Below are positions 41,927 to 60,462 of a DNA stretch of 64,000 bases, piece by piece. The stretch comes from Desulfatiglandales bacterium (GTDB lineage Bacteria > Desulfobacterota > DSM-4660 > Desulfatiglandales > Desulfatiglandaceae). Location of the stretch: positions 2,912,001 to 2,976,000 of the forward strand of contig OY762721.1 of assembly GCA_963666345.1 (NCBI GenBank). The letters run 5' to 3'. Within the stretch, counting starts at the first letter, position 1, and each line of letters opens with the position of its first letter. A program made the translations under genes and the position numbers. Below the pieces are notes generated by a model. That model made no database searches. It was not told the origin of the DNA and worked only from the letters and a program-made list of their open reading frames with translations.

Positions 41927-41932
41927 ACGAAA

Positions 41933-42328: not shown

Positions 42329-42358
42329 CCGATCACCGATTACCGATTACCGATCACT
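42317..42358. repeat. Heptamer array, right (inverted) arm of element 1
   Basis: GATCACA GGTAACC GATCACC GATTACC GATTACC GATCACT, complementary to the left-arm units. Confidence 0.8.
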
Positions 42359-42380
42359 GTACAGTGGGGATTTACAAAGC

Positions 42381-43184
42381 GTGTATTTACTGTATTGCAT
42401 ATTTCACGGCATTGAAGTCCAAAGGCAAGCGACCCTTAAGGGGGTTGGCGGTCAACCTGTCTTTCCGGTTGCGATAAACGGCATCGGCGCTGCCGTATCC
42501 GAAATTAGCGATGCGCATTTGACGCCTGATGTTCCGCAGGTCATGGCATACAAAAAGGTTGTAGAATCATTTCACAGCGATCGAACGGTCATTCCCATGC
42601 GATACGGCTGTGTGCTCAGGGACAGGCCTCAGGTTGTTCAGCTTTTGAAGAGAAACGCCCGTCGGTATGAATCGCTTCTCAAAGAACTGGATGGCTGCGT
42701 GGAGATGGGGATTCGATTGATGATTGATGATTGCCGATTGTCGATTGAAGATTTAAGGAAATCGGAGTTAGAAAATTTCGATCCGCAATCCGCAATCCAG
42801 AATCCAAAATCCAAAATCACGGGACGGGCATATCTGGCCGCCCGAAAAGAGCATTATGCCCAAGAAGAATGCATCACGGAAGCGAACAATGAAATCGCCG
42901 AGCAATTCCGTGCCGCGTTGGCCGGTCTCTTCGTGAAATGTAAAGTTGAGACTGCTGCAATCGCCAATCGCCAATCCGCAATCCACAATCCACTTCTTTC
43001 CCTTTATTTTCTCGTGCCTAAAAAATCCATTGATCCGTTCCGGCGGGTTTTTCGGCACATGCGCCGCAGGATGGAAACCACGAAGCTTCTTTTGAGCGGG
43101 CCATGGCCTCCTTACAGTTTTGTGCTGCCTGACAAGAAAGAGCGCCGGTCGGGGCTTCAGGACAAAGAGGTAAAAGAAAGGTAA
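42381..43184 (+). CDS. gvpF: GvpL/GvpF-family gas vesicle protein with in-frame heptamer insertions
   Basis: YLLYCI, TVIPMRYG, VEMGIR, GRAYL, SGPWPPYSF. Confidence 0.82.
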   Translation: MYLLYCIFHGIEVQRQATLKGVGGQPVFPVAINGIGAAVSEISDAHLTPDVPQVMAYKKVVESFHSDRTVIPMRYGCVLRDRPQVVQLLKRNARRYESLLKELDGCVEMGIRLMIDDCRLSIEDLRKSELENFDPQSAIQNPKSKITGRAYLAARKEHYAQEECITEANNEIAEQFRAALAGLFVKCKVETAAIANRQSAIHNPLLSLYFLVPKKSIDPFRRVFRHMRRRMETTKLLLSGPWPPYSFVLPDKKERRSGLQDKEVKER

Positions 43185-43193
43185 CCCTGGACC

Positions 43194-44666
43194 ATGAATG
43201 CCGAATCCGTGAACGCCTCCGATATATCCTCAAAACATGAAGGTCTCTATGAAATGCTTTTAGAGTCCATTCCCTCTTCTGTCCTGCTGATCGACAAAAC
43301 GCTGTCCATCGTATCCGCAAATCGAAATTTCCTTGAAAAAAACGACCTGTCCTTATCCGAGACAATCGGGCAAAAGCTGGAAAAAGTGTTCCCGGACGTA
43401 ATCCTCCACCGGTTGCCTGTCCTGGATCAAATCCGGGGTGTTTTTCAAACCAGCGAACCGACCAATGGCCAGCGGTTGACCTATCGGGCCCCCGGGGTCC
43501 CCATGAGGGTTTATTACTATAAAATGATCCCGGTCATTCGGCAGGGCGTGATTGAAAACGTGATGTTTCTGATGGATGATATCACCCAGCAGGTGAAATT
43601 GAGCGAGAAGATCCAGCAGGTTGAACGTCACCTCGCGAGTGTCGTTGAGAGTGCCACTGACATCGTTCTATCCCTTGATACGGGGGGGCGGTTTTTGTCC
43701 ATGAACCCGGCCGCGGAAAAAATTTTCGGGTTCTCCATCGAGGATAACGATGGCCCGCTGTTTCAGGACTGTTTGCTTAAAGATGAAAAAAAAGAAATGC
43801 AGAAGGTTTTTTCTGAAGTGATGCACGGTAATAAAGCAAAAGCAGTCGAATGGGACCTGATTACAAAAGAGAAAGTGAGCATTCGCGTCTCCTGGATTTT
43901 TTCACCCATGAAGGATGAAATGTCGAAACCGATCGGCATCGTGGCGGTGGGAAGAGACTTAACCGAGCAGCGCAAATTGGAGATGGAGCTTTTTCAGTCA
44001 CAGAAACTCTCCGCCCTGGGCGTTATGGCTGGAGGTGTTGCCCATGAAATCAGAAATCCGCTGGCCATCAGTTCTTCCGCCGCCCAATTTCTCATGGATG
44101 ATGATATTACCGCTGAGTTTCGCAAGGAGTGTGCGGCTAAAGTTAATTTGGGCATTCAGAGAGCTGCCGCCATCATTGATAACCTTATAAAATTTGCCCG
44201 GCCGGCGTCAAAGCACAGGGTTGAGCCTGTTGAACTCATCTCTCTTCTGCAGGAAACAGTATCTCTGGTCTCCAATCAGGCCGGGATACAAAAAATCGAA
44301 ATAATATCGCATCTCTCCGGGGAATCCTTTACGGTCCAGGGGGTTTACGGACTTCTCCAGCAATTGTTCCTAAACCTTTTCCTGAACGCCATTGCGGCCA
44401 TGCCGCACGGAGGTATCCTGACCCTCTCTGCAGAAAGTCGGGTCGGGGACGTTTTGCTTCGGATAACGGATACGGGGGGCGGTATACCGGGAAAAAACAT
44501 CGATAAAATATTCGACCCTTTTTTTACGACCGGTTCCATAGGAGAAGGCATAGGATTGGGGCTTTCCATCGCCTATGCCATCGTGAAACAGCACGTCGGC
44601 ACTATTGAGGTGCATAGTGCCAGAGGAAAGGGAAGCACCTTCATCGTGAAGCTGCCCACACAGTGA
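43194..44666 (+). CDS. PAS-PAS histidine kinase (GvrB-like)
   Basis: Two PAS domains, AHEIRNPL, DTGGGI, GIGLGL. Confidence 0.9.
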   Translation: MNAESVNASDISSKHEGLYEMLLESIPSSVLLIDKTLSIVSANRNFLEKNDLSLSETIGQKLEKVFPDVILHRLPVLDQIRGVFQTSEPTNGQRLTYRAPGVPMRVYYYKMIPVIRQGVIENVMFLMDDITQQVKLSEKIQQVERHLASVVESATDIVLSLDTGGRFLSMNPAAEKIFGFSIEDNDGPLFQDCLLKDEKKEMQKVFSEVMHGNKAKAVEWDLITKEKVSIRVSWIFSPMKDEMSKPIGIVAVGRDLTEQRKLEMELFQSQKLSALGVMAGGVAHEIRNPLAISSSAAQFLMDDDITAEFRKECAAKVNLGIQRAAAIIDNLIKFARPASKHRVEPVELISLLQETVSLVSNQAGIQKIEIISHLSGESFTVQGVYGLLQQLFLNLFLNAIAAMPHGGILTLSAESRVGDVLLRITDTGGGIPGKNIDKIFDPFFTTGSIGEGIGLGLSIAYAIVKQHVGTIEVHSARGKGSTFIVKLPTQ

Positions 44667-44711
44667 GGCGTTCCATTGACGATTGATGATTGGTGATTGA
44701 GGGCTGAAAAC

Positions 44712-45092
44712 ATGAAAACCAAAGAGCGGACCGTTCTCATTGTAGATGACGAGCCGGATATATTCTGGGTTATGGAACACCTCCTGAAGCAGGAAGGATT
44801 TGTCCTGATCGGGGCCTTGAACGGGCTGGAAACCCTGGTGGTCATGGAAAAAAAACATTTTGAACTGATTTTGCTTGACGCCAAACTGCCTGATATTGAG
44901 GGTTTGGCGCTGGCAAAAAAAATAAGGGAGATGGATTCAACGATTCCCATTGTGCTGATATCCGGATATCTTAGCCGGGATGACGAAATCGTTCAGGACG
45001 CACTCTCCAGCGGATTGATCTCGGAGTATATCTCCAAACCTTTTCAGCACACCGAGATCCTGAATGCAGTGAAAAATCTGTTGCTTTTGTAA
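44712..45092 (+). CDS. Single-domain response regulator (GvrC-like)
   Basis: IVDDE, LLDAKLP, ISGY, SKPF. Confidence 0.88.
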   Translation: MKTKERTVLIVDDEPDIFWVMEHLLKQEGFVLIGALNGLETLVVMEKKHFELILLDAKLPDIEGLALAKKIREMDSTIPIVLISGYLSRDDEIVQDALSSGLISEYISKPFQHTEILNAVKNLLLL

Positions 45093-45109
45093 ACCCCGGT
45101 CTCTGAAAT

Positions 45110-45147
45110 ATGGAATGGATTCCATTTTATAATGGCGCCTGTTCCAT
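45110..45147. promoter_or_regulatory. Tandem ATGGA-N6-TCCAT sites (candidate UAS for gvpA)
   Basis: Perfect copy at 45110-45125 and a 1-mismatch copy at 45132-45147, 22 bp apart. Confidence 0.6.
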
Positions 45148-45266
45148 AGCCCCTATTTCCTGTTTTTTATCCTTTGAGAATCAATTCCCCCGTCCTCCGT
45201 TCAAATTACCCTTGATTTCAGCCGGTTGAAAGGGATTAAAGCTTCCACCACAAATGTACGTGTCTC

Positions 45267-45282
45267 CGGCACGGTTAATGCA
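45267..45282 (+). promoter_or_regulatory. Sigma54 promoter of gvpA
   Basis: CGGCACGGTTAATGCA = GG-N10-GC, about 70 bp upstream of gvpA. Confidence 0.7.
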
Positions 45283-45354
45283 ATAAATATTGTCTGCATG
45301 CATGCATATGGCAAAATCAGTTTAACCGACAAAAAACCAGAAAGGAGAAACATC

Positions 45355-45573
45355 ATGGCAAAAGTACAAAAATCGACAGATTCCTCGAGCCTGGCAGAGG
45401 TTGTGGACAGAATCCTCGACAAAGGCATTGTAATCGATGCATGGGCCAAGGTATCGCTTGTTGGGATAGAATTGCTGTCTATCGAAGCGCGTGTGGTGAT
45501 CGCTTCAGTGGAAACCTATTTGAAGTATGCCGAAGCCATCGGCCTCACAGCCTCCGCTGCAGCTCCTGCCTGA
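45355..45573 (+). CDS. gvpA: Major gas vesicle shell protein GvpA
   Basis: [63 protein letters not shown]. Confidence 0.98.
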
Positions 45574-45735
45574 AAGATCGGTGTGAAGGCAGCTTAGGCG
45601 GAATGAAACGACCCGCAACCGTTGCCCTTCCCCGTTAAACCCATATGGGCAATCTTTACGCGAGGAGCCGATCCCAAGGCTCCTCACGTTCAGACAACAT
45701 CTGTTTCCATTATAAACCGAGAAAGGAGAAGGACC

Positions 45736-46830
45736 ATGGGGCGATTAACGGAAGATATGACAAATCTGCGTGATGGAATAGACGCCCTCCGCAACGGGCG
45801 GGTGGAATTCATCGCCGGTTTAAAACACGGCATGTCTGAACTCAAGTCCGATGTGGCGGACATGCAGCAAGGTTTCCGCAAAGATTACACCCGGATGGCC
45901 GGAAACATGAAAGACAATTTGAAGGCCTTCATGGCTGAAACAGAAGCATATGTCTCAAACCTGAAAAATGACGTGGTGGACATGCAGGATAATTTCCGCA
46001 GCGATCACGCCGATATGGCCCGTAAGTTGAAAGACGATCTTAGTGGGTTTGCATCCGGGATAACATCCTCCGTGGCCGACCTGATGGATCTCTTCAGTGA
46101 CGACCGTGCCAAGATGGCCGGAAACATGAAAGACAGTTTGAAGGCCTTCATGGCTGAAACAGAAGCATATGTCTCAAACTTGAAAAATGACGTGGCGGAC
46201 ATGCAGGATAATTTCCGCAACGACCACGCCGATATGGCCGGCAAGTTGAAAAAGAATCTTCGGATGTTCGCAGCCGGCATAAAGTCCACCGTGTCCGATC
46301 TGGAAAAGCAATTTCGAGATGAGCATATCGAGATGACCGGCAAGGCCGGGGCTGAACGCCAAATGTTTTTTTCAAACGTGAAACAATCGCTTGCCGACCT
46401 GAAACTGAAAACAACCGATCTTCTTCAGGATATTAGCGATGATCTTGCCGGGGCCCGCAGGGCATGGTCCGGCACAACACCAACACCGTCCAGGAAAAGG
46501 ACTGCCGAAAAGGTCCCCAGGCCTGCCAAAAAACAGGCAGAACCGGAGAAGGTTGCACTTCCGGTCAAAGATCAGGAAGCGCAAGAGAGTACCGAAGATG
46601 TGCCTTTAAAGGTACGCCAACCCGCCAAAGCACAGGCAAAATCGGATGATCTCACACAGATCAATGGAATTGGTCCCGTCATGAGCAGGTGTCTGAACAA
46701 GGCCGGTATTTTTACGTTCGCAAAATTGGCTTCAAGCACCACTGAGGAAATCCGGGGAGCGCTGGGGCAATCGGCAAAGTTTGCCAACTTTGAGAGGTGG
46801 GTCAAGGAGGCCGGGAAATTGAGCAGCTAA
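45736..46830 (+). CDS. gvpC: GvpC-like helical repeat protein with C-terminal helix-hairpin-helix domain
   Basis: Lies between gvpA and gvpN; 33/40-aa amphipathic repeats (DNA duplication 45895/46114, offset 219); DDLTQINGIGP. Confidence 0.7.
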   Translation: MGRLTEDMTNLRDGIDALRNGRVEFIAGLKHGMSELKSDVADMQQGFRKDYTRMAGNMKDNLKAFMAETEAYVSNLKNDVVDMQDNFRSDHADMARKLKDDLSGFASGITSSVADLMDLFSDDRAKMAGNMKDSLKAFMAETEAYVSNLKNDVADMQDNFRNDHADMAGKLKKNLRMFAAGIKSTVSDLEKQFRDEHIEMTGKAGAERQMFFSNVKQSLADLKLKTTDLLQDISDDLAGARRAWSGTTPTPSRKRTAEKVPRPAKKQAEPEKVALPVKDQEAQESTEDVPLKVRQPAKAQAKSDDLTQINGIGPVMSRCLNKAGIFTFAKLASSTTEEIRGALGQSAKFANFERWVKEAGKLSS

Positions 46831-46912
46831 ACAGCGTGTTCGCCTCAGGTCCCGGTCTTTTTTTGTCAAATTCACGATTTTCAAGAAAATTTTCAATGTC
46901 GGGAGAGTTTCA

Positions 46913-47878
46913 ATGAAGACTAAATCTTTGAATCGCACCTCGGAAGCAATCCAGATAATGCCGATGCCAAATGATAACGTTCTGCCCGAGCCCAGCAAGG
47001 AATTCGTCAACACCTCTTACATCCGGGATGTGACGGAGCGTGCCCTTGCTTATCTCAATGTGGGATATCCGGTACACTTTTCCGGCCCGGCAGGCACGGG
47101 AAAAACAACCCTTGCCTTTCATATTGCCGCACAGCTCGGCAGGCCGGTCTCTCTCATTCACGGAGATGACGAGTTCGGAAGCTCCGACCTGATTGGACGG
47201 GATTCGGGATACCGAAAGTATAAACTTTATGACAATTATATCCATTCCGTCATGAAAACCGAGGAGCATTTGAATACACAGTGGGAGGACAACCGGTTGA
47301 CCACGGCATGCAAAAACGGGAATACGCTCATTTACGATGAGTTTACCCGGTCTAGACCGGAGGCCAATAATGCGCTTCTCAGCGTCCTAGAAGAAAAATT
47401 TTTAAATCTGCCAAGGCTTCGAAGGGCCGATAAGGGGTACATGGAAGTGCATCCCGATTTCCGGGCGATCTTTACTTCCAACCCCGAGGAGTATGCAGGG
47501 GTCCACAAAACCCAGGACGCACTGATGGACCGTCTAATCACCATTCATCTGGGCCATTTTGACAGGGAGACGGAGGTGCAGGTTGCAATGGCCAGGTCGG
47601 GTCTGAAACTCAGCGATGCCGAAACCATTGTCGACATCGTGAGAGGGTTGCGAAATACGGGAGTAAATAACAACCGGCCCACCATTCGTGCCAGCATCGC
47701 CATTGTCCGCATCCTGGCAAACCTTGGCGGGCACGCCCGGATGGACGACCCCGTTTTCATCCGCACATGCCGTGACGTCCTGAGCACCAATACGGCCAAG
47801 GTTACCCGCGGGGGCCAGCCACTCATGCCCGAGGTGCTGGAGGAGGTTATGCAGAAGGTCTGCGGAACCCGGACATAA
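46913..47878 (+). CDS. gvpN: Gas vesicle AAA+ ATPase GvpN
   Basis: GYPVHFSGPAGTGKTTLA, YDEFTRSRPEANN, NPEEYAGVHKTQDALMDR. Confidence 0.96.
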   Translation: MKTKSLNRTSEAIQIMPMPNDNVLPEPSKEFVNTSYIRDVTERALAYLNVGYPVHFSGPAGTGKTTLAFHIAAQLGRPVSLIHGDDEFGSSDLIGRDSGYRKYKLYDNYIHSVMKTEEHLNTQWEDNRLTTACKNGNTLIYDEFTRSRPEANNALLSVLEEKFLNLPRLRRADKGYMEVHPDFRAIFTSNPEEYAGVHKTQDALMDRLITIHLGHFDRETEVQVAMARSGLKLSDAETIVDIVRGLRNTGVNNNRPTIRASIAIVRILANLGGHARMDDPVFIRTCRDVLSTNTAKVTRGGQPLMPEVLEEVMQKVCGTRT

Positions 47879-47903
47879 CCGGCCGGAGACCGTTGGCCGC
47901 TCA

Positions 47904-48025
47904 TATTGGCGATTGCAGATTTGTGATTGATGATTTGCGATTGTCGATTGAAGGAATTCTATATTTTATCAAAAAAGAAAGAGCGAAGCGATTCCACAAA
48001 TCAACAATCAACAATCGACAATAAA
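47904..48025. repeat. Empty inverted heptamer element between gvpN and the gvpV-like gene
   Basis: 7 GATTGnn-type units, a core containing GAGCGAAGCGATTCC, then 4 CAATCnn-type units. Confidence 0.8.
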
Positions 48026-48038
48026 AAGGAGCCAAAAG

Positions 48039-48362
48039 ATGCCTTTACCCAAAAAAATCATTCGAGGTTTGGCAAACATCCGCACACGCTCGGGAACCCG
48101 CGACCAGGTATCCGAGCCGTACAAGGCTTTTCTTAGAATCGGATCACTGGAGATGGAGAAAGCCCGGCGGGGCAAGGAAAAGGAAAGCGCAATGAACCGT
48201 GTGCATAATATAGATGACCGTTTCCTGGAAATCGAGGCTGAAAAATCTGAACTTCTAAAGGCAATCGGCATAACGGCCAGCGGCGATGCTTGCGGTAATC
48301 CGGCCAATGGGTCGAAGCGTGAGACGGCCCAAAATAATGGCGGATTCAAAATATCTTACTGA
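48039..48362 (+). CDS. GvpV-like gas vesicle protein
   Basis: Coiled-coil protein (RGLANIRT, LEMEKARR) directly after gvpN. Confidence 0.6.
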   Translation: MPLPKKIIRGLANIRTRSGTRDQVSEPYKAFLRIGSLEMEKARRGKEKESAMNRVHNIDDRFLEIEAEKSELLKAIGITASGDACGNPANGSKRETAQNNGGFKISY

Positions 48363-48770
48363 GTATCAGTATGGATTATAGGATTGATGATTGACTATTG
48401 GTGATTGTCGATTGAAAAGCGCCTTAAAAGCTAAAGCATACAATATCCAAACACCAAAAACATTATTTTAAGGGTTATATATGAGGTAAACCGATGCCAA
48501 GGTTGAAGGGGGCGGCCTATATCCACACCAGCCGAACGATCCGAGGTTTTCGGTCCTGTCGGCACTTTACCGGGATATCTCTCACCTACTTTGAGTCCGG
48601 CCGGATCGGATTCGAAAAAGAGAAAATAGCCGTCAGGGAAGCGTTGAACAGAAGACACGGTCAAAGTCACCGTGCAGGTTCTCGTCTGCTGTCCGAGGGT
48701 GTTCCGGTTCATGACAGGAAGACGCTTATTGGAGATAGAAACAAGAAAGGGCAAAGAAAGGGGTCAAGAT

Positions 48771-48956
48771 ATGAAAATCAACTGTCTTTCCTGCGGGCAC
48801 AAAGTAGACCTGGACGATGTTTACGATGATTATCAAGGCCAGATCAGGTGTTTGACCTGCGCCGCGATGCTGGAAATCAAAACCGAGGAAGGTCAACTCA
48901 GATCTGTCATATGGGCTAATGTTCCGCCCTCCCCTTTGGAAGAGAAAACCGCCTGA
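48771..48956 (+). CDS. Small zinc-ribbon protein
   Basis: CLSC...CLTC, 61 aa, purine-rich RBS. Confidence 0.65.
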   Translation: MKINCLSCGHKVDLDDVYDDYQGQIRCLTCAAMLEIKTEEGQLRSVIWANVPPSPLEEKTA

Positions 48957-49007
48957 GGGCGCTTTGACAATTACCCGCAAACGTAAGAAAAGGATTGGGA
49001 AAGCAAA

Positions 49008-49772
49008 ATGGCTGCGCAATCTCCGGATCATAAAGGAAGATACTTATACGCCGTAATCGCCGGGGCCGGCGGGCAAAACCTGGAAACACAGGGAATTGAC
49101 AACGGCGCCCTCTATACCATTTCTGAAGGGAAAATCTCGGCTGTTGTCAGCGATGTCCCCAACAAAAAGCTGCGACCGGAACGGAGACACCTGGCGGCCC
49201 ACCAGGGTGTGCTTCGGCGGTTGATGGAAGAGGGCACGCCGCTCCCCATGACATTCGGTATCATTGCGGACGGTTCCCGGGCAATCAGGCGGATACTGAC
49301 CCTAAACGAAAAAGCTTTTCAGGAAGCGCTTGACCATGTCAACGGGAAAGTGGAAATGGGACTGCGGGTCACCTGGGATGTACCGAATATATTCGATTAT
49401 TTTATCAACACCCATCCGGAACTCAGAGCGGTACGAGATCGGTATTTCGGCACCAATCTGGAACCGGCGCACGCGGATAAGTTAGCGCTGGGGCGTATGT
49501 TCGACAACCTGTTGAATGAAGAAAGGGAGATCCACACCGAAAAGGTAGAAGAGATTCTTGCCGGTGTCTGCTTCGAGATCAACCGAAACCCATGCCGAAG
49601 CGAACTGGAAGTCATGAGCCTGGCCTGCCTTGTGGGACGGGATAAGGCGAAACAAAAAGCGTTTGAAAAAGGCATTTTGGAAGCAGCCAATCCGTTCGAC
49701 AACAATTATGCCTTCGATTACAACGGCCCCTGGGCTCCCCATAATTTCGTGGATATAGAGCTTAAGTTATGA
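49008..49772 (+). CDS. gvpF: Gas vesicle protein GvpF
   Basis: GRYLYAVI, AHQGVL, LPMTFG, GKVEMGLRV, GPWAPHNFV. Confidence 0.9.
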   Translation: MAAQSPDHKGRYLYAVIAGAGGQNLETQGIDNGALYTISEGKISAVVSDVPNKKLRPERRHLAAHQGVLRRLMEEGTPLPMTFGIIADGSRAIRRILTLNEKAFQEALDHVNGKVEMGLRVTWDVPNIFDYFINTHPELRAVRDRYFGTNLEPAHADKLALGRMFDNLLNEEREIHTEKVEEILAGVCFEINRNPCRSELEVMSLACLVGRDKAKQKAFEKGILEAANPFDNNYAFDYNGPWAPHNFVDIELKL

Positions 49773-49792
49773 ATGAAGAGAAAACAATTTTT

Positions 49793-49933
49793 GATTGGCG
49801 ATTGGCGATTGGCGATTGACGATTTAAGGAAGTCGCTTCGCTCCATTATTATTTTTATAAATATAGAGCGATATTCCTCAATTTTTCAAACGGTGTTATT
49901 CAATCAACAATCGCCAATCAACAATCAACAATG
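49793..49933. repeat. Empty inverted heptamer element between gvpF and gvpG
   Basis: (GATTGGC)3 GATTGAC GATTTAA, a core GGAAGTCGCTTCGCTC, then CAATCAA CAATCGC CAATCAA CAATCAA CA-ATG. Confidence 0.85.
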
Positions 49934-50212
49934 CTTATAGTCGATGACATACTGTTTTTTCCGATGCGTAGTATCCTCTGGATATTTCGCGAACTGCACA
50001 ACTCCGTCCGGCAGGAGATGGAAAACGAGGCCGAGTCCATCACGGCGGAACTGAGCGATCTTTATATGATGTTAGAGACGGAAAGAATAACGGAAGACGA
50101 GTTCGACGCCCGTGAAAAACAGCTCCTTGACCGGCTGGAAATGATACAGGAGCGCAATACCGGTATCGAAGATGATGAAGAAGACCCTGATCCGGATAAA
50201 CCGGGAGAGTGA
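49931..50212 (+). CDS. gvpG: Gas vesicle protein GvpG
   Basis: DDILFFP...LWIF, ITEDEFDAREKQLLDRL. Confidence 0.9.
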   Translation: MLIVDDILFFPMRSILWIFRELHNSVRQEMENEAESITAELSDLYMMLETERITEDEFDAREKQLLDRLEMIQERNTGIEDDEEDPDPDKPGE

Positions 50213-50334
50213 CAACTGATCAGTAACCGGCCTCCGGCCCAGAGGGACCTACGCCCCGGAGGATGATCAGTGAAAAAAGATCGGTGACCGATAACCTATG
50301 ACTGATATCCGGTACCAGATTAAAGGGCTAAATA

Positions 50335-52422
50335 GTGACGGGAGAGCAACCGGAAGGATGTCAAAGTTTGAACACAGAACCACACAAGGACTCACCTCTT
50401 TTCCTTCGCAACAGCCATTTGCGAATCCTTTTTTTCGGCGGCAAAGGCGGTGTCGGCAAGACAACGTGCGCTACGGCCACGGTGCTCAGACTGGCCAAGC
50501 GCACCGCGGAAGCCTCCTTTCTCTTAGTCTCGACAGATCCGGCCCATTCTCTGGCCGATAGCCTGGCCGACACCACCCTTCCTTGCAATTTAAACGTTAT
50601 CGAACTCGACGCAGGAAAATCCCTAACCGCTTTCAAGAAAAACCACACCCGGAAACTCAGGGAGATTGCATCCCGCGGAACTTTCTTTGACGGAGAAGAT
50701 ATCAATGAGATCCTGGACCTCTCCCTGCCGGGCATGGACGAGCTGATGGCCTTTCTCGAGATCGCGGGGTGGGTGGAAAATGAGACGTATGACTGCATTG
50801 TGGTGGATACCGCTCCAACGGGACACACTCTCAGACTGCTGGCCATGCCGGCGTTGATCAAAAGGTGGCTTGATGCGCTGGATGCGCTGTTAGCCAAGCA
50901 TCGTTATATGAAGAAGCTGTTCAGCGGTTCTTATCGGCCTGATGATCTGGATAAATTCCTGTCCGGGATGGCCGGTTCGGTCAAACAGATGGAGGCGCTG
51001 CTGCAGGATCCGGAACGATGCTGTTTTGTTCCCGTTATGCTTGCCGAAGCCTTGAGCGTCACAGAGACCTCGAGGCTGTTGGAGGGATTGAAACAATCAA
51101 AGATACCGGTCACCGATATCGTGGTGAACAGGCTTTACCCGGAAAGTATTTGTATGGTTTGTTCGGACCGGCACATCCGACAGATGGGAGAGCTCGGTCA
51201 ACTTGAAAAGAAAATATCCGCTTATTCCCTATGGGGAATTCAACAATACCCGGAAGAAATTCGCGGTCCGGCTCCTCTCGAGGTATTCTGGGATGGACTT
51301 GTTGCATTGAACAATCAACCCCGGTTGAATATTCTAAAGATTCAACGGGGCAAGCAATCAGCAATCCATGGCCCAGACCTGGCCGGCCCAGATCCTGCGG
51401 TCAAGGGAAGTACATGGAGAACCAACAGAAGTAAAAGCATGCTCAGAGCATGTCGCGCCAGGGCGGGCATCAATCGCCAATCAACAATCGCCAATCAACA
51501 ATCCAAACCGCCTGTTCCTGAAAAGAGGCTCCTGGTTTTTGCCGGAAAGGGGGGAGTTGGAAAGACCACCCTGGCCTGTGCCACGGCAGTCAGGATGGCC
51601 CGGACATTTCCGGATAAGGGGGTTTTTCTATTCTCTACGGATCCGGCCCATTCCCTGTCGGACTGTCTAAGGAAACGGATCGGACCGGAGCCGACAGAGC
51701 TTATTCCCGGACTGACAGCCATGGAGATCGACGCACAGGCAGAGTTCGATGGCTTGAAAAAAAAGTATGCGGCAGAACTGGAGAGGTTTCTTGTCGCCCT
51801 CTCGCCCGATCTTGATCTGACATTTGATCGCGAAGTGATGGAACGCGTCATGGATCTCTCTCCCCCCGGCCTGGATGAAGTGATGGCCCTCACCCTAGCC
51901 ATGGGTTTTCTCGCCGAGGATCAATACCAGGTCTTCGTGCTCGATTCGGCCCCGACTGGGCACCTGATCCGGCTTTTGGAAACCCCGGAGCTCATTCAGC
52001 AGTGGCTCAAGATGTTTTTCAACCTTTTTCTGAAGTATAAGCGCGTTTTTCGGCTTCCCGGGGTCTCGGAGCAAATGATCCGGATATCAAAAGATCTCAA
52101 ACGCCTGCTTGCCCTGTTAAAGGATTTCGACCGGTCGGCGCTATATGCGGTGACCATACTGACGGAGATGGCATTTCAGGAGACAGCGGACCTGGTGGCT
52201 GCCTGCCTGCGAATGGGGATAAATGTGCCGACGCTTTTTCTCAATCTTGCCACACCGGTCAGTGAGTGCCCTCTTTGCTCGGCCCTTTACCGGAACGAGG
52301 AGCAGATCAGAAAAAAGTTTGAGCGAACCTTTCCCGGAAAGTCCCAGGTCCTGGTCCATTACATGGGGGAAACGCGGGGCATGCAGCGAATCGAGGCGCT
52401 GGGAGATGAGATTTATGATTGA
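50335..52422 (+). CDS. ArsA/Get3-family ATPase with two nucleotide-binding domains
   Basis: Two sets of GKGGVGKTT, STDPAHSL, D(T/S)APTGH and CxxC. Confidence 0.9.
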   Translation: MTGEQPEGCQSLNTEPHKDSPLFLRNSHLRILFFGGKGGVGKTTCATATVLRLAKRTAEASFLLVSTDPAHSLADSLADTTLPCNLNVIELDAGKSLTAFKKNHTRKLREIASRGTFFDGEDINEILDLSLPGMDELMAFLEIAGWVENETYDCIVVDTAPTGHTLRLLAMPALIKRWLDALDALLAKHRYMKKLFSGSYRPDDLDKFLSGMAGSVKQMEALLQDPERCCFVPVMLAEALSVTETSRLLEGLKQSKIPVTDIVVNRLYPESICMVCSDRHIRQMGELGQLEKKISAYSLWGIQQYPEEIRGPAPLEVFWDGLVALNNQPRLNILKIQRGKQSAIHGPDLAGPDPAVKGSTWRTNRSKSMLRACRARAGINRQSTIANQQSKPPVPEKRLLVFAGKGGVGKTTLACATAVRMARTFPDKGVFLFSTDPAHSLSDCLRKRIGPEPTELIPGLTAMEIDAQAEFDGLKKKYAAELERFLVALSPDLDLTFDREVMERVMDLSPPGLDEVMALTLAMGFLAEDQYQVFVLDSAPTGHLIRLLETPELIQQWLKMFFNLFLKYKRVFRLPGVSEQMIRISKDLKRLLALLKDFDRSALYAVTILTEMAFQETADLVAACLRMGINVPTLFLNLATPVSECPLCSALYRNEEQIRKKFERTFPGKSQVLVHYMGETRGMQRIEALGDEIYD

Positions 52423-52441
52423 TGATTGGAGGAAATAAATT

Positions 52442-52705
52442 ATGGCTGATTTTTCCATCGAGGAAACGGAACATATCTCTCTTTGCGAGACCCTGGATCG
52501 CATTCTCAACAAAGGCGCCGTTATTTTCGGTGAAGTGGTGATTTCCGTTGCCAATGTGGATTTGATCTACATTGCCTTGCAGGTGCTGGTTGGTTCAGTC
52601 GAAACGGTGCGGGGGGAAATGCCGATAAGTGGTTCTAATCCTCCTCCCATAAGACTTGGGATCAGGGCAGACAATGTCGGCAAATTAGAGATTGGCGATT
52701 GTTGA
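52442..52705 (+). CDS. GvpA-family minor protein (GvpJ/GvpS-like)
   Basis: SLCETLDRILNKGAVIFGEVVISVANVDL. Confidence 0.85.
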   Translation: MADFSIEETEHISLCETLDRILNKGAVIFGEVVISVANVDLIYIALQVLVGSVETVRGEMPISGSNPPPIRLGIRADNVGKLEIGDC

Positions 52706-52788
52706 TTGGCGATTTACGATTGAATCCGGTTTTGAGTTTTTCAATCAACAATCCAGAAGTCATCAATCCAAAGGAGGACGTTGGTAAA

Positions 52789-53184
52789 ATGATCAATCAT
52801 CAATCATCAATCATCAATCATCAATCAAAAAAGGTTGAATCCGAAACCCTCAGCGATTTTGCCAGAGTCATGGGTAAGGACACCGTGCAGGCTCAATCGC
52901 ATTGCGAAGTGAACGACCGTCGCGCCCGGATCGAACTTGATCCGGAAAAGGCAAAAAACGGGCTCGGTCAACTGGTGCTCACCCTAATGAAAGTCATTCA
53001 CGAACTCCTGGAACTTCAGGCGATCCGTCGAATCGACGCGGGGTCACTCATGGATGAAGAGGTTGAAAACATCGGGATGACTTTGATGAAGCAGGCCGAG
53101 GAGATTGACAGGCTCAGAAAAGAGTTCAACCTGGAGGAGGATGATCTCAATATTGACTTGGGGCCACTGGGGAAACTCTTATAA
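52789..53184 (+). CDS. gvpK: Gas vesicle protein GvpK
   Basis: GLGQLVLTLMKVIHELLELQAIRR, DLNIDLGPLGKLL; AAGGAGG RBS before the ATG at 52789. Confidence 0.92.
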   Translation: MINHQSSIINHQSKKVESETLSDFARVMGKDTVQAQSHCEVNDRRARIELDPEKAKNGLGQLVLTLMKVIHELLELQAIRRIDAGSLMDEEVENIGMTLMKQAEEIDRLRKEFNLEEDDLNIDLGPLGKLL

Positions 53185-53217
53185 TTGTTGATTGACGATT
53201 GTTGATTGATGATTGAA
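53183..53217. repeat. Heptamer array, left arm of four-helix-bundle element 2
   Basis: AATTGTT GATTGAC GATTGTT GATTGAT GATTGAA. Confidence 0.8.
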
Positions 53218-53245
53218 AGAAACAAATCTTATTTAAGAGGAGGAT

Positions 53246-53626
53246 ATGGAGTTAGATCCTGAAGAATTGAAAAAAAGGACAAAAGATTTCGCTCATAGGT
53301 GTGTAAAGCTTGCTATTTCATTGCCACGAACCACACTGGGAAAGCACATTGAATCTCAGTTAATCAGGTGTTCGACATCTGTAGCATCAAATTATCGAGC
53401 CAGTATTCATGCCCAGTCAAAAGCTGCATTTATAGCGAAAATAAGTATTGTAATTGAAGAATCAGACGAATCTGAGCTTTGGTTGGAATTCGTGATGGAT
53501 GAAAAGCTAATGGAAAGAAAGAAGGTTTTGCCGCTTTTCAATGAAGCACATGAACTATCTTCCATTTTTATAACCACAAGAAGGACAGCTCAGAAAAAGA
53601 AAAAAATCAACAATCATAAATCATAA
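53246..53626 (+). CDS. Four helix bundle protein (23S rRNA IVS / bAvd-like family)
   Basis: LKKRTKDFA, QLIRCSTSVASNYR, SKAAFIAKISIVIEESDESELWLE. Confidence 0.92.
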   Translation: MELDPEELKKRTKDFAHRCVKLAISLPRTTLGKHIESQLIRCSTSVASNYRASIHAQSKAAFIAKISIVIEESDESELWLEFVMDEKLMERKKVLPLFNEAHELSSIFITTRRTAQKKKKINNHKS

Positions 53627-53638
53627 ATCAACAATCAA
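53604..53638. repeat. Heptamer array, right (inverted) arm of element 2
   Basis: AAATCAA CAATCAT AAATCAT AAATCAA CAATCAA. Confidence 0.8.
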
Positions 53639-53654
53639 AACCGGAGGTTTTCAT

Positions 53655-53984
53655 ATGGCCATTCAACGTGCAGCACAGCATTCCATCGCGAGCACCAACC
53701 TTGCCGATTTGCTCGAACGTATTTTGGACAAGGGGATCGTGATAGCGGGGGATATCAAGATCAGCCTGGTCGACGTCGAACTGCTGACCATCCAGCTTCG
53801 CCTGGTCATATGTTCCGTGGATAAGGCCAGGGAGATGGGCATGGACTGGTGGGTAAATAACCCCTGCTTCACCCGGGGGGCAAAAAATGATCAAGTCGTT
53901 GATTCCCTTGAAAGGATCGAGAAAAGACTCGAAAGACTGGAATCTTCCCCTTTGAAAGAATCCGGAAGTGATTCAGCACCTTAA
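53655..53984 (+). CDS. gvpJ: Gas vesicle protein GvpJ
   Basis: [52 protein letters not shown]. Confidence 0.9.
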   Translation: MAIQRAAQHSIASTNLADLLERILDKGIVIAGDIKISLVDVELLTIQLRLVICSVDKAREMGMDWWVNNPCFTRGAKNDQVVDSLERIEKRLERLESSPLKESGSDSAP

Positions 53985-54072
53985 GCCCGCGGTTTCCATT
54001 TGCGAAATTAAGCGTTGGATACATGGTTTTCGCCCGCAAGGGCAAAGCGACTGAAGACGAGGAGGTCGAATT

Positions 54073-54500: not shown

Positions 54501-55255
54501 AAAAGGGGAGAGGAAGGGAAGATTTCCAGGTGATGTGAAGGCCGGATCCTTAAGAGGAAGATCAAGACGGAGATGACATATCCGAAAAGGGAGCTTGAAA
54601 AACAAAAAAGTATGGAAGGTGTGGCATAATTATCAACGCACCGGTACGGTATGGGTATTTTTGGACAAGAAAGGTATTAGGAATGGCTGAAAAACCTGCC
54701 TATGAAGAATTGAAGCAAAGGCTTAAGGAGTTAGAGAAAACAGCCCTTAGGTGCAAGCGGGCAGAGGAGGACGAAAAGGATAAGCTGCAGGCGCAGTTGG
54801 TAAACGCCTTGGAAATGGCCCATTTAGGCCGATGGGAATATGATGTCGCCAATGACCTCTTCACGTTCAATGACCATTTCTACAAAATATTTCGCACCAC
54901 AGCCAAGCAAATCGGCGGGTATACGATGTCATCGGCTGAATACGCCCGTCGCTTTGTCCATCCTGACAATATGACTGTTGTCGAAGAAGAAAATCGAAAG
55001 GCGATTGAAGCAACCGATCCCAACTTTAGCCGGCAACTGGAACACCGCATACTTTATGACGACGGTACCATAGGACATATTTCCGTTCGGTTTTTCATCG
55101 TCAAGGACGCCCAAGGCCTTACAGTCAGTACCTATGGAGTGAATCAGGATATCACAGACCGCAAGAGGATGGAGGAGGCGTTGCGGAAGAGCGAGGAACA
55201 CTACCGCAGCATTTTCGAGGATTCGAGAGATGCAGTCTATATTACCACTCGAGAT

Positions 55256-56531
55256 CAATACTGTCCGGTTAACAAATGTCTAATTTAAGCTGAGCTGAAC
55301 AGCTACCCTTATTTGAAATAGCAGGTGGCGGTTCAAATAGCTCCCTTAAGGAACAACTCCTAAAAAGATTGAGTTGCAGAATCCTAAGAAGATTCTGCAG
55401 GCTGACTTTAATGCGAAATAATAATTTCAGGTAACACAGTAGAAGATACGCGATTAATGCAACATAAATCTGTGAGAGGACCGCGTTTTTAGAATTGCCT
55501 ATGAAAGCCTTGATTTTAAGGTTCTGTTTGATCCAGCGGAAGAATATCTCTATTTTCCATCGCTCTTTGTAGATATCGGCAATTGTTTTTGCAGCCAGCT
55601 TGAAGTTATTGGTAATAAATACATAGTGATGTCCCGTTTGGGGGTCACGATAGCCTATCCTCCTTAATTGATAAGGGCACTGTTGTATTCCTTTTACACC
55701 GTTAAGCAAGATGGTCTGATCTGATGTCAAGCCCTGCTTTTTTTTAATCTCACGGCGTTCAGTGACCCTGTAAACGGCATTACGCTTTTGTCTTGTGACA
55801 AAAAACAGGTTGTTTTTCTCAAGGGATGCAAACCAGCTGTAATCGGTGTAAGCCCGATCAGCAACCACAATGGAGCCTTTGGGCAATCTAAGACATCGAG
55901 CGATCTCTATCTCATGTGTTTTAGCCTCTGAGATGGAGACAAAACTGGGTAGATAGCCATCATGATCCAACACGGTGTGCAGCTTAATGCCCGCCTTGGT
56001 CCTTCTGAAGGATGCCCAGGGAAATACACTGAGGCATAGATCGATCACAGAGGCATCCATACTGTAGAGTTTGTTTTTAAACTTAAATTTATGCTTAGGG
56101 GCGATACCGGAGCATTTACGATACATACGGTAAAATAAAGCCTCATAGAAAGAGGCTGGGCGGTTGTTGTTGGCATCGGAAAAGGTTGAGCGGGCAACGG
56201 GCGTGGCTCCCAGGTGATAAAGGCTGCTGGATCTGGCCTTTAAGCTTTGGATACCGTCTCTGAGGCTTACTCTGGAGGTCAGTTGCATAAACATCAGATG
56301 GACGAACTGATTCCATCGGCTAAAGGAGCGGGGTTTTCTGCCTGTGCCGTGCTGATTTTCAAGGGTTGAAAAAACATGTCTTGGTATAATTTTAAGCATA
56401 GAATTAAAAAGTGTGGTATGATGAGCCATAGTCCGGATTCTCCTTTCTGTTTAGTGTGTTATGGCTAACATCATTATAACAGATTACGCGGAGAGTTCGG
56501 ACTTTTTTTATCCCTTAACCGGACACTATTG
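55256..56531 (-). mobile_element. IS4-family insertion sequence with 9-bp TSD
   Basis: TIR CAATA(C/G)TGTCCGGTTAA (16/17); TSD ACTCGAGAT at 55247-55255 and 56532-56540. Confidence 0.95.
55269..56429 (-). CDS. IS4-family transposase
   Basis: DASVI, ADRAY, YKERWKIEIFFRWIKQ (YREK). Confidence 0.95.
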   Translation of the reverse strand: MAHHTTLFNSMLKIIPRHVFSTLENQHGTGRKPRSFSRWNQFVHLMFMQLTSRVSLRDGIQSLKARSSSLYHLGATPVARSTFSDANNNRPASFYEALFYRMYRKCSGIAPKHKFKFKNKLYSMDASVIDLCLSVFPWASFRRTKAGIKLHTVLDHDGYLPSFVSISEAKTHEIEIARCLRLPKGSIVVADRAYTDYSWFASLEKNNLFFVTRQKRNAVYRVTERREIKKKQGLTSDQTILLNGVKGIQQCPYQLRRIGYRDPQTGHHYVFITNNFKLAAKTIADIYKERWKIEIFFRWIKQNLKIKAFIGNSKNAVLSQIYVALIAYLLLCYLKLLFRIKVSLQNLLRILQLNLFRSCSLRELFEPPPAISNKGSCSAQLKLDIC

Positions 56532-58269
56532 ACTCGAGATGGTAAGTTTATTGACGCAAACCAATCTGCACTTGATCTCTTTGGCTATAGTAGAGAAGAG
56601 ATGGCATCGGTGAATGCCCTTCAACTATATATGCATCCTGTTGATGCAAGCAGGTTTCAGAAGGAGATAGAGGAAAAGGGATTTTTGAGCGACTATGAAG
56701 TAACGTTCCGTAAGAAAGATGGTACGGAGATAAACAGTTTGTTTAGTACGACTCTCCGACGAGCAAATGATGGAAGCATTCTGGCATACCAGGGCATTAT
56801 ACGTGATATGACTGAGCACAAGAAACTTGAAGCCCAGTTCATCCAGTCCCAGAAGCTGGAGGCCATAGGCAATCTGACAGGGGGGATTGCCCACGACTTC
56901 AACAATCTCTTGACCGCCATCATCGGAAATGCCGATCTGGCGATCGGAGATGCGGGGAAGGATTCGCCCCTCTATGAGTTATTAGAAGAGATCAGGGAGG
57001 CAGGGGCAAGGGCGGCAGGGCTCACCAGGCAGCTCCTGGCCTTCAGCCGGAAGCAGGCCCTTCAACCCGAAGTGGTGAACCTCAATGAGGCGCTGGGTAA
57101 TATGGACAGGATGCTGCGGCGTCTCATCCGGGAGGATATTGAAGTGGAAACCCTCTTGAGGCCTGATTTGGGACGGGTCGAGGCGGACGTCGGGCAGTTG
57201 GAGCAGATCCTCATGAACCTGGCGGTCAATGCCGGAGATGCCATGCCCGATGGAGGAAAGCTGACTGTTGAGACAGGTAACGTGGATCTGGATGAAGGTT
57301 ATGCCCGGAACCACATCGCCGTGATGCCGGGTCCTTATGTGATGTTAGCCGTGAGCGACACGGGCATCGGAATGACGAAGGAGGTACAGGATCGTCTCTT
57401 TGAGCCCTTTTTCACCACCAAGGAGAAGGGGAAAGGAACGGGTCTGGGGCTCTCCACCGTGTACGGGATCGTCAAGCAGAGTAAAGGCAACATCTGGGTC
57501 TACAGTGAGCCGGGCAAAGGGAGCACCTTCAAAATCTACCTCCCCAGGATAGAAGAGACGGTTTGTATCATTGGGAAAGCAGAGAAAAAGGGAGTATCCC
57601 TTCAGGGTTCGGAAACCATCCTGGTGGTTGAAGATGACGACATGGTCAGGAATTTGGCACTCAAGGCCCTGAAGCAGTACGGGTACAAGGTCCTGTGCGC
57701 CGGGGACGGTCAGGATGCCTTTCATGTGTGCCGGGAACACAAGGAACCGGTTCACTTGATGTTGACAGACGTGGTCATGCCGGGGATGGGCGGCATAGAA
57801 CTGGCGAAGAGTCTGGAAAAACTGCGGCCTGAGATAAAGGTCCTTTTCATGTCGGGCTACACTGACAGTGCTATCTCTCACCATGGGATTTTAGCGCCAC
57901 ATGTTAATTTTATTGAAAAACCTTTTTTACCGGAGACTCTTGCAGGCAAAGTGCGCAAAGTTCTTGATGCCGGTCGGAGCGGAGCGTAGATCCCGCTGAA
58001 AGCGGGGATGAGGCCAAAGCTACCGACCCATGATTAATTATCCTTATTTGTAAGTTTTTTAGGTTCTTGTTTTTATTCGATAAATGACGACTATCTTCGC
58101 TGCATCCTCTATCGAATACAGTATTCGATAGTTTCCGACACGAATGCGATAATCATCTTTTTCGGTGAGCTTTTTAGAAGATTGAGGTCTATGGTTGACG
58201 GGCAGAGCGAGATTTTTTTGTCGATCGCAATGCGATCTTTCGGGGGATTGGGAGAAGAGGGGGAAGAGA

Positions 58270-59962
58270 ATGGATGCGAAGGAATTAAAAGCGAAGGAAA
58301 ATCAGGGAGATTTTGAACTCAGGCAAGGAGCCGAGGAAAAACTGAAAGAAGCGTCCAGACGTAGCGAAGATCTCTCCGGAGTGTCGCCCGAAAAAATGGC
58401 ACATCTCATCCACGACCTTCAGGTTCATCAGATTGAGTTGGAAATGCAGAACGATGAACTCCGGCGTATCCAGGGTGAACTTGAGAGGACGCGGGACAGG
58501 TATTCTGATCTGTATGACTTTTCGCCGGTCGGGCATTTTACAATGAGTGAAACGGAGATTATCGAAGAGGCCAATCTCACTATCTCTTCCATGTTAGGCA
58601 TAGAACGCAGCGCCTTGATCGGAAAATCCTTTACCCGTTTTGTTCTGAGAGAAGACCAGGACATTTTCTATAAACAACGGCAGCGCCTTCTGGAAACAGA
58701 GACACCCCGGTCCTGCGAGATACGTCTTGTAAGAAATGAAGGTCATGAGTTTCATGCCCGTATTGAATGCATGGTCATAAAAAACAGGGGTGGCGATCTA
58801 AGGCAGATCAGGGCGGCGGTCAGCGATATCTCCGACGTCAAGAGAATGGAAGAGGAGCTTTTAAGGTCCCAAAAACTTGAATCGGTAGGGTTGCTTGCAG
58901 GGGGCATCGCCCATGATTTCAACAATATCCTGACAGCGATTATAGGTAATGTTTCCATGGCCAAGATGCAGGTGAGGCCGGAGGATGAGATGTTTGACCT
59001 GTTAAGTGGCGCAGAGACTGACCGGACAGTTGGTGACCTTTGCCAGAGGGGGAGCGCCGGTAAAGGAGACCGCTTCAATCAAAGATGTTATCAGGGAATC
59101 ATCCCTCCTTGTTTTGCGAGGTTCAAAAACCAGGTGCGATTTTTCCTTAGCTGAAGACCTCTGGCCGGCTGAGGTTGACGTCGGGCAGATGAGCCAGGGC
59201 ATCAATAATATTGTTTTCAATGCAGACCGGGCCATGCCGGAAGGGGGAATCATTCAGGTTGCTGCAGAAAATCTAATAATAGGTGACGGACATGGGGTGC
59301 CCCTCAGGCCGGGCAGATACATCAAAATATCCATCACGGATCATGGGGTTGGCATAGCCGAAAAATATCTTTCAAAGGTATTTGATCCTTATTTTACGAC
59401 AAAGCAGGAAGGGAACGGTCTCGGGCTTGCCATGACCTATTCCATCATCAGGAAACACGATGGGCACATCACGGTGGAATCCCAGTTGGGGGTTGGGACC
59501 GCATTTCACATCTATTTGCCTGCTTCCGATAAAGCAGTCCCAGAAAAAGAGGAAGTTAAGATAATAAAAGGCCAAGGCAGGATTCTGGTGATGGATGATG
59601 AAGCGTCGTTACGGAAAATGGTCGGGAGGATGCTGAAAAACCTTGGCTATGAGTCAGAATTTGCAAAGGACGGTGCTGAAACGATTGAGATGTACAAGGA
59701 AGCCAAAGAAGCTGAAAAGCCTTATGATGCCGTCATTCTGGATTTGACCATTCCCGGCGGAATGGGCGGCAAAGAAGCGATTAACAAATTACTTGAGATT
59801 GATCCTGAAGTAAAAGCTATTGTCTCAAGCGGATACTCCGATGACTCGGTCTTGGCGAATCTCCAGGAATATGGTTTTAAAGGTACGATGCCCAAACCAT
59901 TTGAATCCCGATCACTGAGCAAAGTGTTACATGAAGTGCTCGAGGGGAAAGGGAAGTATTGA
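58270..59962 (+). pseudogene. PAS hybrid histidine kinase, frameshifted near 59010
   Basis: PAS and AHDFNN are in one frame, HATPase and REC in another; the junction is within the HisKA helix. Confidence 0.82.
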
Positions 59963-60462
59963 TGCCTGCCCTGGCGCGACTCCGCCGAAATTTGTTTGTT
60001 TCGTGATAAGTATTTAGAATTAGAGTCCCGGACGTCACGTTCATTAAAGCCAGGTCTGGGCCAGGGATTGGTGATTGAGAAGAATTGAACCCTGGAGAAC
60101 TGAAAGAGCGAAAAGATGGGAAAATTTGTCAGACGGAGAATTCATTATTCTGAAATTCAAGGATCATTATCCGAAATAAGATTTAAGAATACCTTAACTA
60201 TACTGAATTTTTAGCAAAGTCATACTTATGCAAGCAATGTTAAAACTATCACACTTTTGAACATTATCAATCCCTTTGACATCCGCAATATATCCAGTCA
60301 TAAAAAAATTACGCTGATGATCGGGGAGAATTAACCACGCTTTTCGCCCCGAATATATTGTGGGATTGCAGGAGATGGTCACGTGAGAGAATGAGATAAT
60401 CGCCTTTTGAAACCTTCTGCGACTTGTGACAGCAAAATACCGCTATTTTGAAAGGAGAAATC

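Follow-up and report, generated by a model that had tools for sequence, protein, structure and literature searches.

Two copies of a miniature DNA element with constant ends and a variable core of held length, probably mobilised in trans, in a Desulfatiglandales genome

Two copies in the window and the genes that host them

The window analysed here is a stretch of 64,000 nucleotides (nt) from a Desulfatiglandales bacterium (contig OY762721.1, positions 2,912,001 to 2,976,000), part of a single 4.16-Mb contig of the genome hereafter referred to as G000. An earlier reading of its letters (the original prediction) had placed in it a mini-element, present twice, with conserved ends and an unrelated core of fixed length. 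Both copies were confirmed, at 51362–51474 on the forward strand and at 59958–60070 on the reverse strand, and we conclude that they belong to a mobile DNA element, non-autonomous and about 102 bp long, with a patchy distribution in Desulfobacterota and in some of their phage-like contigs. The features at the two sites are as follows.

51367–51468, forward strand: copy 1, element proper, 102 nt (boundaries by analogy with filled and empty sites elsewhere)
51367–51379, forward strand: left end of copy 1, CATGGCCCAGACC
51380–51451, forward strand: core of copy 1, 72 nt
51452–51468, forward strand: right end of copy 1, GTCGCGCCAGGGCGGGC
51355–51366, forward strand: heptamer units CAATCAG CAATC, adjoining copy 1 on the left, with the insertion point after CAATC
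51469–51506, forward strand: remaining heptamer array, AT CAATCGC CAATCAA CAATCGC CAATCAA CAATCCA, right of copy 1
51319–51350, forward strand: hairpin CCCCGGTTGAAT..ATTCAACGGGG, 32 nt, upstream of copy 1 and inside the ArsA-like open reading frame (ORF)
50335–52422, forward strand: ORF of a double ArsA/GET3-like ATPase of the gas vesicle cluster, 695 aa, which hosts copy 1 in its inter-domain linker
59964–60065, reverse strand: copy 2, element proper, 102 nt
60065–60053, 60052–59981 and 59980–59964, reverse strand: left end, 72-nt core and right end of copy 2
59958–59963, reverse strand: ATCAAT, flanking copy 2 on its right and identical in the copy of genome G005
59006–59962, forward strand: 3' part of a hybrid histidine kinase/receiver gene, whose stop codon falls within the flanking ATTGAT, 1 nt before copy 2

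In the strand beginning CAATCC, the left ends of the two copies match at 21 of 22 positions and the right ends at 22 of 23. Within the window, the right-end 23-mer occurred twice at three mismatches or fewer (0 expected from 100 shuffles) and the left 14-mer exactly twice; the predicted inverted complementarity of the ends (CCTGGC/GCCAGG) is present. The two cores have 17 of 68 positions alike, which is the chance level (shuffled 68-nt cores have a mean of 17.5 alike positions, and 60% of the shuffles reach 17). Both copies abut heptamers, as had been claimed, copy 1 lying within a CAATCNN array and copy 2 behind two such units. Comparisons of filled and empty sites place the outer CAATC and ATCAAT letters in this flanking heptamer sequence, outside the element.

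Copy 1, which has CA rather than CC as its first two bases, comprises 34 codons and begins on a codon boundary; the ArsA-like frame stays open, and the element is read through as residues 345–378 of the protein. Its excision in silico joins CAATCAG CAATC to AT CAATCGC with the heptamer phase perfect (TRF placed the array on its right at genome positions 2963471–2963503). The upstream hairpin is not part of the element, since it is present in the element-free ortholog of genome G009; it recurs at genome positions 1618770–1618800, upstream of a decayed copy at 1618822. Copy 2 is on the strand opposite to the histidine kinase gene, just behind its stop codon, and its ATCAAT flank is read as either a preferred target or a flank that moved with it. 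The kinase was read in two overlapping frames (58195–59154 and 59006–59962), which suggests a frameshift or two genes.

Distribution and plan of the family

The family pattern is CCTGGCCCAGACC, a core of about 72 nt and GTCGCG(C/A)CAGGGC(G/A)GGC. G000 holds seven loci. In five copies (the two in the window and those at genome positions 2566351, 2475871 and 1161120), the distance from TGGCCCAGACC to GTCGCG is exactly 72 nt; the other two loci are a doublet at 1607365 and the copy at 1618822, which has a decayed right end. With 57–87 nt allowed between the ends, the exact pattern was present in 8 of 41 related genomes, G000 included; a sample of 401 genomes of the phylum had it in 11, and it was also found in at least 121 stretches of a species-representative genome collection. 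Among the matches listed, almost all were from Desulfobacterales, Desulfobacteraceae, Desulfatiglandales or "Deltaproteobacteria" metagenome-assembled genomes (MAGs). The few matches in other taxa (L039, L097, L108 and L126), without the preceding CCC and the following GCRGGC, are likely due to chance.

Four copies were found on three viral contigs of IMG/VR. One of these contigs (L212) has two copies with different cores, at 2775–2865 and 5350–5440, in the gaps between the genes of a phage-like structural module (portal, MuF-like, protease/capsid), and is a possible vehicle for spread between genera. Many copies stand at the contig ends of MAGs. With respect to neighbouring ORFs, the copies are oriented at random (19 ++, 14 −−, 12 +− and 8 −+), only 6 of 96 copies lie inside an ORF of at least 100 aa, and the nearest ORFs (117 scanned) correspond to ordinary, unrelated genes, with no cas family among them.

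The ends are unequal, the left being 13 nt and the right 17 nt long, and their complementarity is short and imperfect (GGCCC..CCTGGC against GCCAGG..GGGCC, about 8–13 bases). RNAalifold gave nothing but a consensus terminal stem of 7 bp, and it is through this end pairing that whole-element folding reaches z values of −1.1 (forward) and −1.4 (reverse). The right end exists in two forms, the commoner short form of 17 nt and a long form of 47 nt in which a G+C-rich hairpin lies between GTCGCGCC and AGGGCRGGC, 9 nt from the tip. The long form is 94–98% identical across genomes G031, G010, G015 and G005 and is common in G110; in G023, a different hairpin occupies the same position. No left-end hairpin was found in the family alignment or by folding, and none in the short form either. 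Most units (135 of 169) are single, with one left end, one core and one right end, and the multi-unit forms are nested or tandem pairs; spacer-less head-to-tail pairs and forms with the order left end, core, right end, core, right end occur.

Under the original prediction, a lack of further copies would have made the equal length of the two cores a coincidence. Further copies were found in G000 and its relatives, and the length proved to be no coincidence of two copies: 145 unique copies cluster at 70–73 nt, with 72 nt in 50 copies, 71 in 36, 73 in 16 and 70 in 15 (69 nt in 5 and 68 nt in 4), figures that, apart from those for G023 and G000, come from scans restricted to gaps of 57–87 or 60–85 nt. 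A set of 96 non-redundant cores, obtained by dropping 19 copies without the flanking CCC/GC marks and collapsing copies more than 80% alike, had a mean length of 71.4 nt (sd 1.4). In G023, 20 regions were sampled by the left end alone and the right end was sought up to 3.5 kb away. All 10 copies with an uninterrupted right end in this sample have cores of 69–76 nt; the rest comprised one chance match of the left end inside a gene and 10 copies with a hairpin-interrupted, truncated or unseen right end. In the class of 84/85 nt, the 13-nt left end is repeated once in tandem, a mark of nested or tandem forms.

The claim that the cores are unrelated stood for the window pair and failed for the family as a whole. 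Ungapped comparison of 34 cores of 72 nt gave 35.2% identity, against 24.8% with one core reversed and 25.8% with one shuffled, and all six 12-nt blocks of the core were above the controls (0.30–0.43). The cores are alignable within subfamilies, an outcome that the original prediction had named as refuting it, and weakly alignable across the family, and whole core subfamilies recur in several genera. Core G+C content is 39%, with no folding signal (mean z −0.15). In five G000 copies, the ends are near-perfect and the cores cannot be aligned.

Filled and empty sites and the choice of target

Copy 2 (window 59958–60069) has an identical twin (112 of 112 nt) in contig C340 of G005, a different genus, and the flanks of this twin match G000 nowhere beyond short stretches of 73–82% identity. 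The core of copy 1 has a relative in G023 in another context, and the ArsA-like protein matches that locus solely over the translated element. Among 163 copies compared, 18 pairs are at least 93% identical within the unit and have unrelated far flanks.

Four independent kinds of comparison between filled and empty sites agree that the unit extends from CCTGGCCCAGACC to RGGC (CCTGG...RGGC, ±1 nt), with an ambiguity of one base because C stands on both sides. G110, a single contig of 5.1 Mb with 54 exact left ends, has a host repeat of about 170 nt, 15 sites of which are empty and read TGGTTATGCC^CTRTGACATGGCCC (TGGTTATGCC^CTRTGAC), where ^ is the insertion point. Six filled sites were found among the loci examined, and the three that were aligned carry two core types, with the element exactly at ^. 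In two loci (L100 and L243), the ORF of an IS91-like transposase is split by the element between ..VIYRY and LDCG... Of seven intact homologues, three have TATC^TTGA at the split point and four differ by synonymous changes; the same insertion, with an adjacent deletion, was found in L055 and G110. Five independent nested insertions (L064, L069, L099, L128 and L082) all occurred at ..CCCAGACC^TGG/TGA. The ArsA-like ortholog of G009, 87–89% identical, has one frame of 680 aa and an uninterrupted CAATCNN array at the place of the element, and a contig of metagenome run X7, from a more distant relative, joins 51314 to 51479 with 19 other letters. For the other copies of G000, the flanking genes of relatives have 65–70% DNA identity, too distant for orthologous empty sites.

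No target-site duplication was found in the filled and empty comparisons (nested sites, IS91-like ORF and G110 host repeat). Over all choices of boundary and length, the best fixed duplication was present in 20% of 95 copies, against 6% in permutations. The empty host-repeat sites are also without the ends, so core and ends arrive together. Copy 1 was unchanged in three near-identical metagenome runs of the four DNA runs mapped, and no insertion polymorphism was seen. The reads contain a joint between opposite strands (51312/60076), which most likely derives from a paralogous locus (genome position 1618755) where an upstream hairpin like that of copy 1 stands with a core like that of copy 2.

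The G110 host repeat (..GGGTATGGGTATCTTTTTTTTGGTTATGCC CTRTGACATGGCCCC..) has a long internal inverted repeat and is present in at least 21 copies in contig C1 of G110 (e.g., at 168355, 597094 and 1238834; L300–L309); several MAGs have it too. The element favours this repeat as a target, and the repeat could in turn be an RNA gene or a small mobile element of its own.

In 96 copies, the four bases before the unit were A (56%), A (70%), T/C (86%) and C (99%), and the bases after it were weakly biased. The element is inserted as a whole, directly after C, usually after AAYC, in one defined orientation to the target sequence, and such insertion has taken place recently and in many lineages. The readings of empty and nested targets (TATC^TTGA, TGCC^CTRT and GACC^TGG) indicate a loose word, near-invariant in its C alone. 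One site of the host repeat, and the place behind the left end of another copy, have been hit repeatedly, which implies that more than four target bases matter.

The idea that insertion is targeted to heptamer arrays was right in substance. Copies stand in short tandem-repeat arrays well above the chance level: a repeat unit common to both flanks of a copy measures at least 6 nt in 55% of cases (18% for shuffled pairs) and at least 8 nt in 21% (2.9% for shuffled pairs). G000 has 164 arrays of period 7, and those of the CAATCNN type are concentrated in the gas vesicle cluster of the window; arrays rich in AAYC words would offer many harmless sites.

The gas vesicle cluster occupies 41000–54000 of the window and comprises three GvpL/F, three GvpA-like, an AAA_5 GvpN-like, GvpG and GvpK genes and the double ArsA-like gene. 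CAATCNN/GATTGNN arrays were detected by TRF in nearly every intergenic gap (window 41886–53640), and a second patch of arrays, with some CAATCNN and mostly other units, lies at genome positions 1618800–1635100. Within the cluster, small ORFs at 41921–42328 and 53246–53626 belong to the family of 23S rRNA intervening-sequence proteins and bAvd-like four-helix proteins. A 14-nt unit, AAANCCCTKGAAAG, is paired at no fewer than 10 dispersed sites of G000 (e.g., 539519, 3502314 and 3927087). It flanks one of the three copies with CCTTGA-type flanks, and AATCCCTGG is common to this unit and the left junction of the element.

The near-perfect ends around unalignable cores in five G000 copies would also be compatible with a DNA site that serves the host (a promoter cassette, a terminator-like or nucleoid-protein site, or a linker module), selected at each locus and spread by duplication or recombination. 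In our reading of the alignments, a weak core pattern near the right end resembles −35/−10 boxes, one subfamily has a TATAAT-like box conserved at 75–86% across G000, G005 and G015, and contigs from three metagenome runs have an identical copy 1. However, orientation to genes is random, the identical copy in another genus has an unrelated context, one copy has disrupted a transposase ORF, most of the host-repeat sites counted (15 of 21) are empty and the neighbours are unrelated housekeeping genes (117 ORFs). Some copies have also decayed, with degenerate ends at genome position 1618822 and in G023, which argues against selection at each locus. We consider such a host site to be unlikely.

It is more improbable still that the units are small RNA genes, structured or guide-like, with the ends as a closing stem around a variable middle. 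The 7-bp terminal stem and the folding of the whole element are consistent with such genes, and a constant length around a variable middle is reminiscent of guide RNAs. However, Rfam yielded nothing at the gathering score in the window save a tRNA elsewhere, and a focused search of copy 1 (E up to 10) returned a single chance-level hit (E 8.8). The core has no structure signal, the orientation to genes is not fixed, one copy is translated within an ORF, and cores compared with their own flanks show identity or complementarity no better than those of other cores; the precise insertion behaviour was demonstrated at the DNA level.

The least probable explanation is that of the original prediction, a fixed frame of two ends that captures or copies unrelated spacer-like segments of measured length: although copies 1 and 2 have chance-level identity at equal core length and the same flanking host repeat holds different cores in G110 and several MAGs, the cores are homologous position for position, travel with the ends as one unit and are missing together with them from empty sites. 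Neither core had a match in the phage collection, only chance-level words and a decayed paralogue were found elsewhere in G000, and copy 2 had no match in the plasmid collection. Nor was a reverse transcriptase, Cas (CRISPR-like) or IS110 gene found linked to the elements, and an orthologous site with the same ends and a replaced core was not seen in close strains.

Probable mobilisation in trans and comparison with known systems

We therefore suggest that the two copies are most probably representatives of a non-autonomous mobile element mobilised in trans. Since the element encodes nothing, an enzyme supplied in trans would recognise no more than the two ends and a few bases of the target. 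Continued spread would be confined to lineages in which both ends and their spacing are kept, while the core would drift to near-random sequence. The ends and the length would thus be constant because spread needs both ends and the spacing, by selection among element lineages rather than at individual host loci. A protein linker gained 34 residues through copy 1, and copy 2 stands behind a gene; a host function is not indicated.

Several observations weigh against mobilisation in trans as set out here. An autonomous version, with the same ends around a gene, was found neither in G000 or G110 nor in 40 regions with an end that were sampled from G023 and G005. The ends of the IS200-like copies of G000 are different, and the Y1+DnaA_C genes of this genome sit in other repeats, with no element copy near. 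No Y2 transposases were found in G000 or G023, and only fragments in G110; IS110 genes were not found in G015 and G023, and no element-type ends were found on IS110 genes. The repeated hits at one host-repeat site imply target information beyond the four-base logo. The restricted gaps of the scans bear on most length figures, and rare short forms with cores of 33–34 and 45–46 nt occur (a helical-phase ruler was rejected, as these forms differ from 72 nt by no whole turns). Finally, elements of the IS200/IS605 type are known to have an orientation bias with the lagging strand. The 54 left ends of G110 (34 + and 20 −) have 24 strand changes, against 26 for a random order, along the contig order with the origin and terminus unmapped, and this lack of replichore bias argues against a lagging-strand mechanism of that type.

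The absence of a duplication, the short 5' word, the asymmetric ends, the 3' subterminal hairpin and the spacer-less tandems point most to a nick-and-join mechanism of the HUH type (IS200/IS605- or IS91/Helitron-like), which, by analogy with these systems, may be put forward as a tentative candidate, less likely than not. Y1 genes were found in 33 of the 41 relatives, in all 8 with the element and in 25 of the 33 without it; their presence is not discriminating. The RAYT-like genes of G000 score 58–63 bits, below the family cut-off of 80. Of 30 IS91-like loci, 29 were without end motifs and the one with them corresponds to an insertion into the gene; the termini of the IS91-like element of genome G174 are unrelated to the ends of the element.

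An enzyme outside the known insertion sequence (IS) families, possibly a host-resident single-copy gene as with REP/RAYT, with a ruler of about 72 bp for the distance between the ends and a target beyond the logo word, seems to us rather doubtful. Such an enzyme would explain the repeated hits at one host-repeat site and behind the element's own left end.

Other mobile genes were noted in these genomes. Two genes of G000 (L298 and L299, genome positions 2026896–2027915 and 1930193–1931134) encode proteins of 313–339 aa with a Y1 (IS200-like) domain and a DnaA_C-type or other helix-turn-helix domain; one gene with Y1 and helix-turn-helix domains is bracketed by a 29-nt inverted repeat (present 11–14 times in the genome) and the other by REP-like hairpins. 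Frames of about 320–380 aa matching Y1 are common across the relatives. The IS91-like element of G174 (L273–L275) is about 1.65 kb long, is present in 50 of 201 genomes of the order and has TCTCATC heptamer runs on its 3' side, with one copy carrying a duplicated end segment. An IS4-type IS in the window (55255–56532; DUF4372 and DDE_Tnp_1, 386 aa), with 18-bp inverted ends TCAATACTGTCCGGTTAA, is present in the genome as one full copy and two fragments. It was rejected as the mobiliser, because its ends are different. Of the candidate enzymes considered (IS4-type, IS200-like, Y1+DnaA_C, IS91-like and IS110), none has the ends of the element or follows its occurrence.

Searches with the end motifs and with the keywords Desulfobacter and MITE (miniature inverted-repeat transposable element) found no published description of the element, although literature beyond that searched may hold one, and the portion consulted of a 2024 review of prokaryote MITEs (PMC10969869) contains no occurrence of "Desulfo", "IS200" or "REPIN". 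By these checks, the family corresponds to an undescribed, widely spread miniature mobile DNA in Desulfobacterota, a phylum in which repeats have been little studied. It provides clean natural examples of duplication-free, site-preferring insertion, including an in-frame insertion into a protein linker and insertions into phage-like DNA, and it poses the puzzle of a length held to ±2 nt with the sequence free, and of which enzyme moves the element. Its copies break MAG assemblies, as judged from the many copies at contig ends, and could be mistaken for RNA genes or CRISPR-like units.

The element resembles bacterial MITEs (Correia, ERIC and RPE) in being about 100 bp long, non-coding, multi-copy and mostly intergenic, with partly complementary ends and subfamilies. 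As in those elements, an in-frame insertion occasionally adds a peptide to a protein; such insertions of Rickettsia palindromic elements are described in the review (PMC10969869). Unlike MITEs, the element has no target-site duplication and has unequal ends with about 8–13 imperfectly complementary bases, its length varies by no more than ±2 nt around a core that has drifted to near-random sequence, and no parent IS with the same ends was found (G000, G110 and the samples of G023 and G005).

Two other kinds of known unit were considered and rejected. Integron attC sites have different end sequences (RYYYAAC...GTTRRRY), and the element has an unstructured core and copies dispersed singly. A CRISPR-like array does not agree with the predominance of single units (135 of 169) or with the lack of a cas family in the 117 neighbouring ORFs.

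The miniature elements of the IS200/IS605 group (PATEs, with a Y1 HUH enzyme) are likewise inserted 3' of a short word, without duplication or true inverted repeats, and the long form of the element has a right-tip hairpin as they do. Unlike PATEs, the element lacks a left-end hairpin, its short form has no hairpin at all, and no strand bias was found in G110; the hairpins at both ends and the replication-direction bias of the IS200/IS605 type are thus absent, and the duplication-free insertion 3' of a short word is shared.

IS91 is flanked by the words GAAC/CAAG. With the IS91/Helitron types, the element shares a fixed word at one end (GAAY in the element), the lack of duplication, a 3' subterminal hairpin about 10 nt before the tip, spacer-less head-to-tail copies and the sharing of termini only; the hairpin is a feature of the long right-end form, and the short form is commoner. 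The IS91-like elements of the order have unrelated ends, and one is itself a victim of insertion.

The whole unit of the element forms no long hairpin, unlike REP/REPIN sequences, and it is other repeats that flank the RAYT-like genes of G000. Mobilisation in trans by a single-copy host gene, which would explain why no autonomous element was found, is nevertheless the way in which REP/REPIN sequences are moved by RAYT, and these repeats, too, are short (about 100 bp) and intergenic, with two conserved parts at a constant distance.

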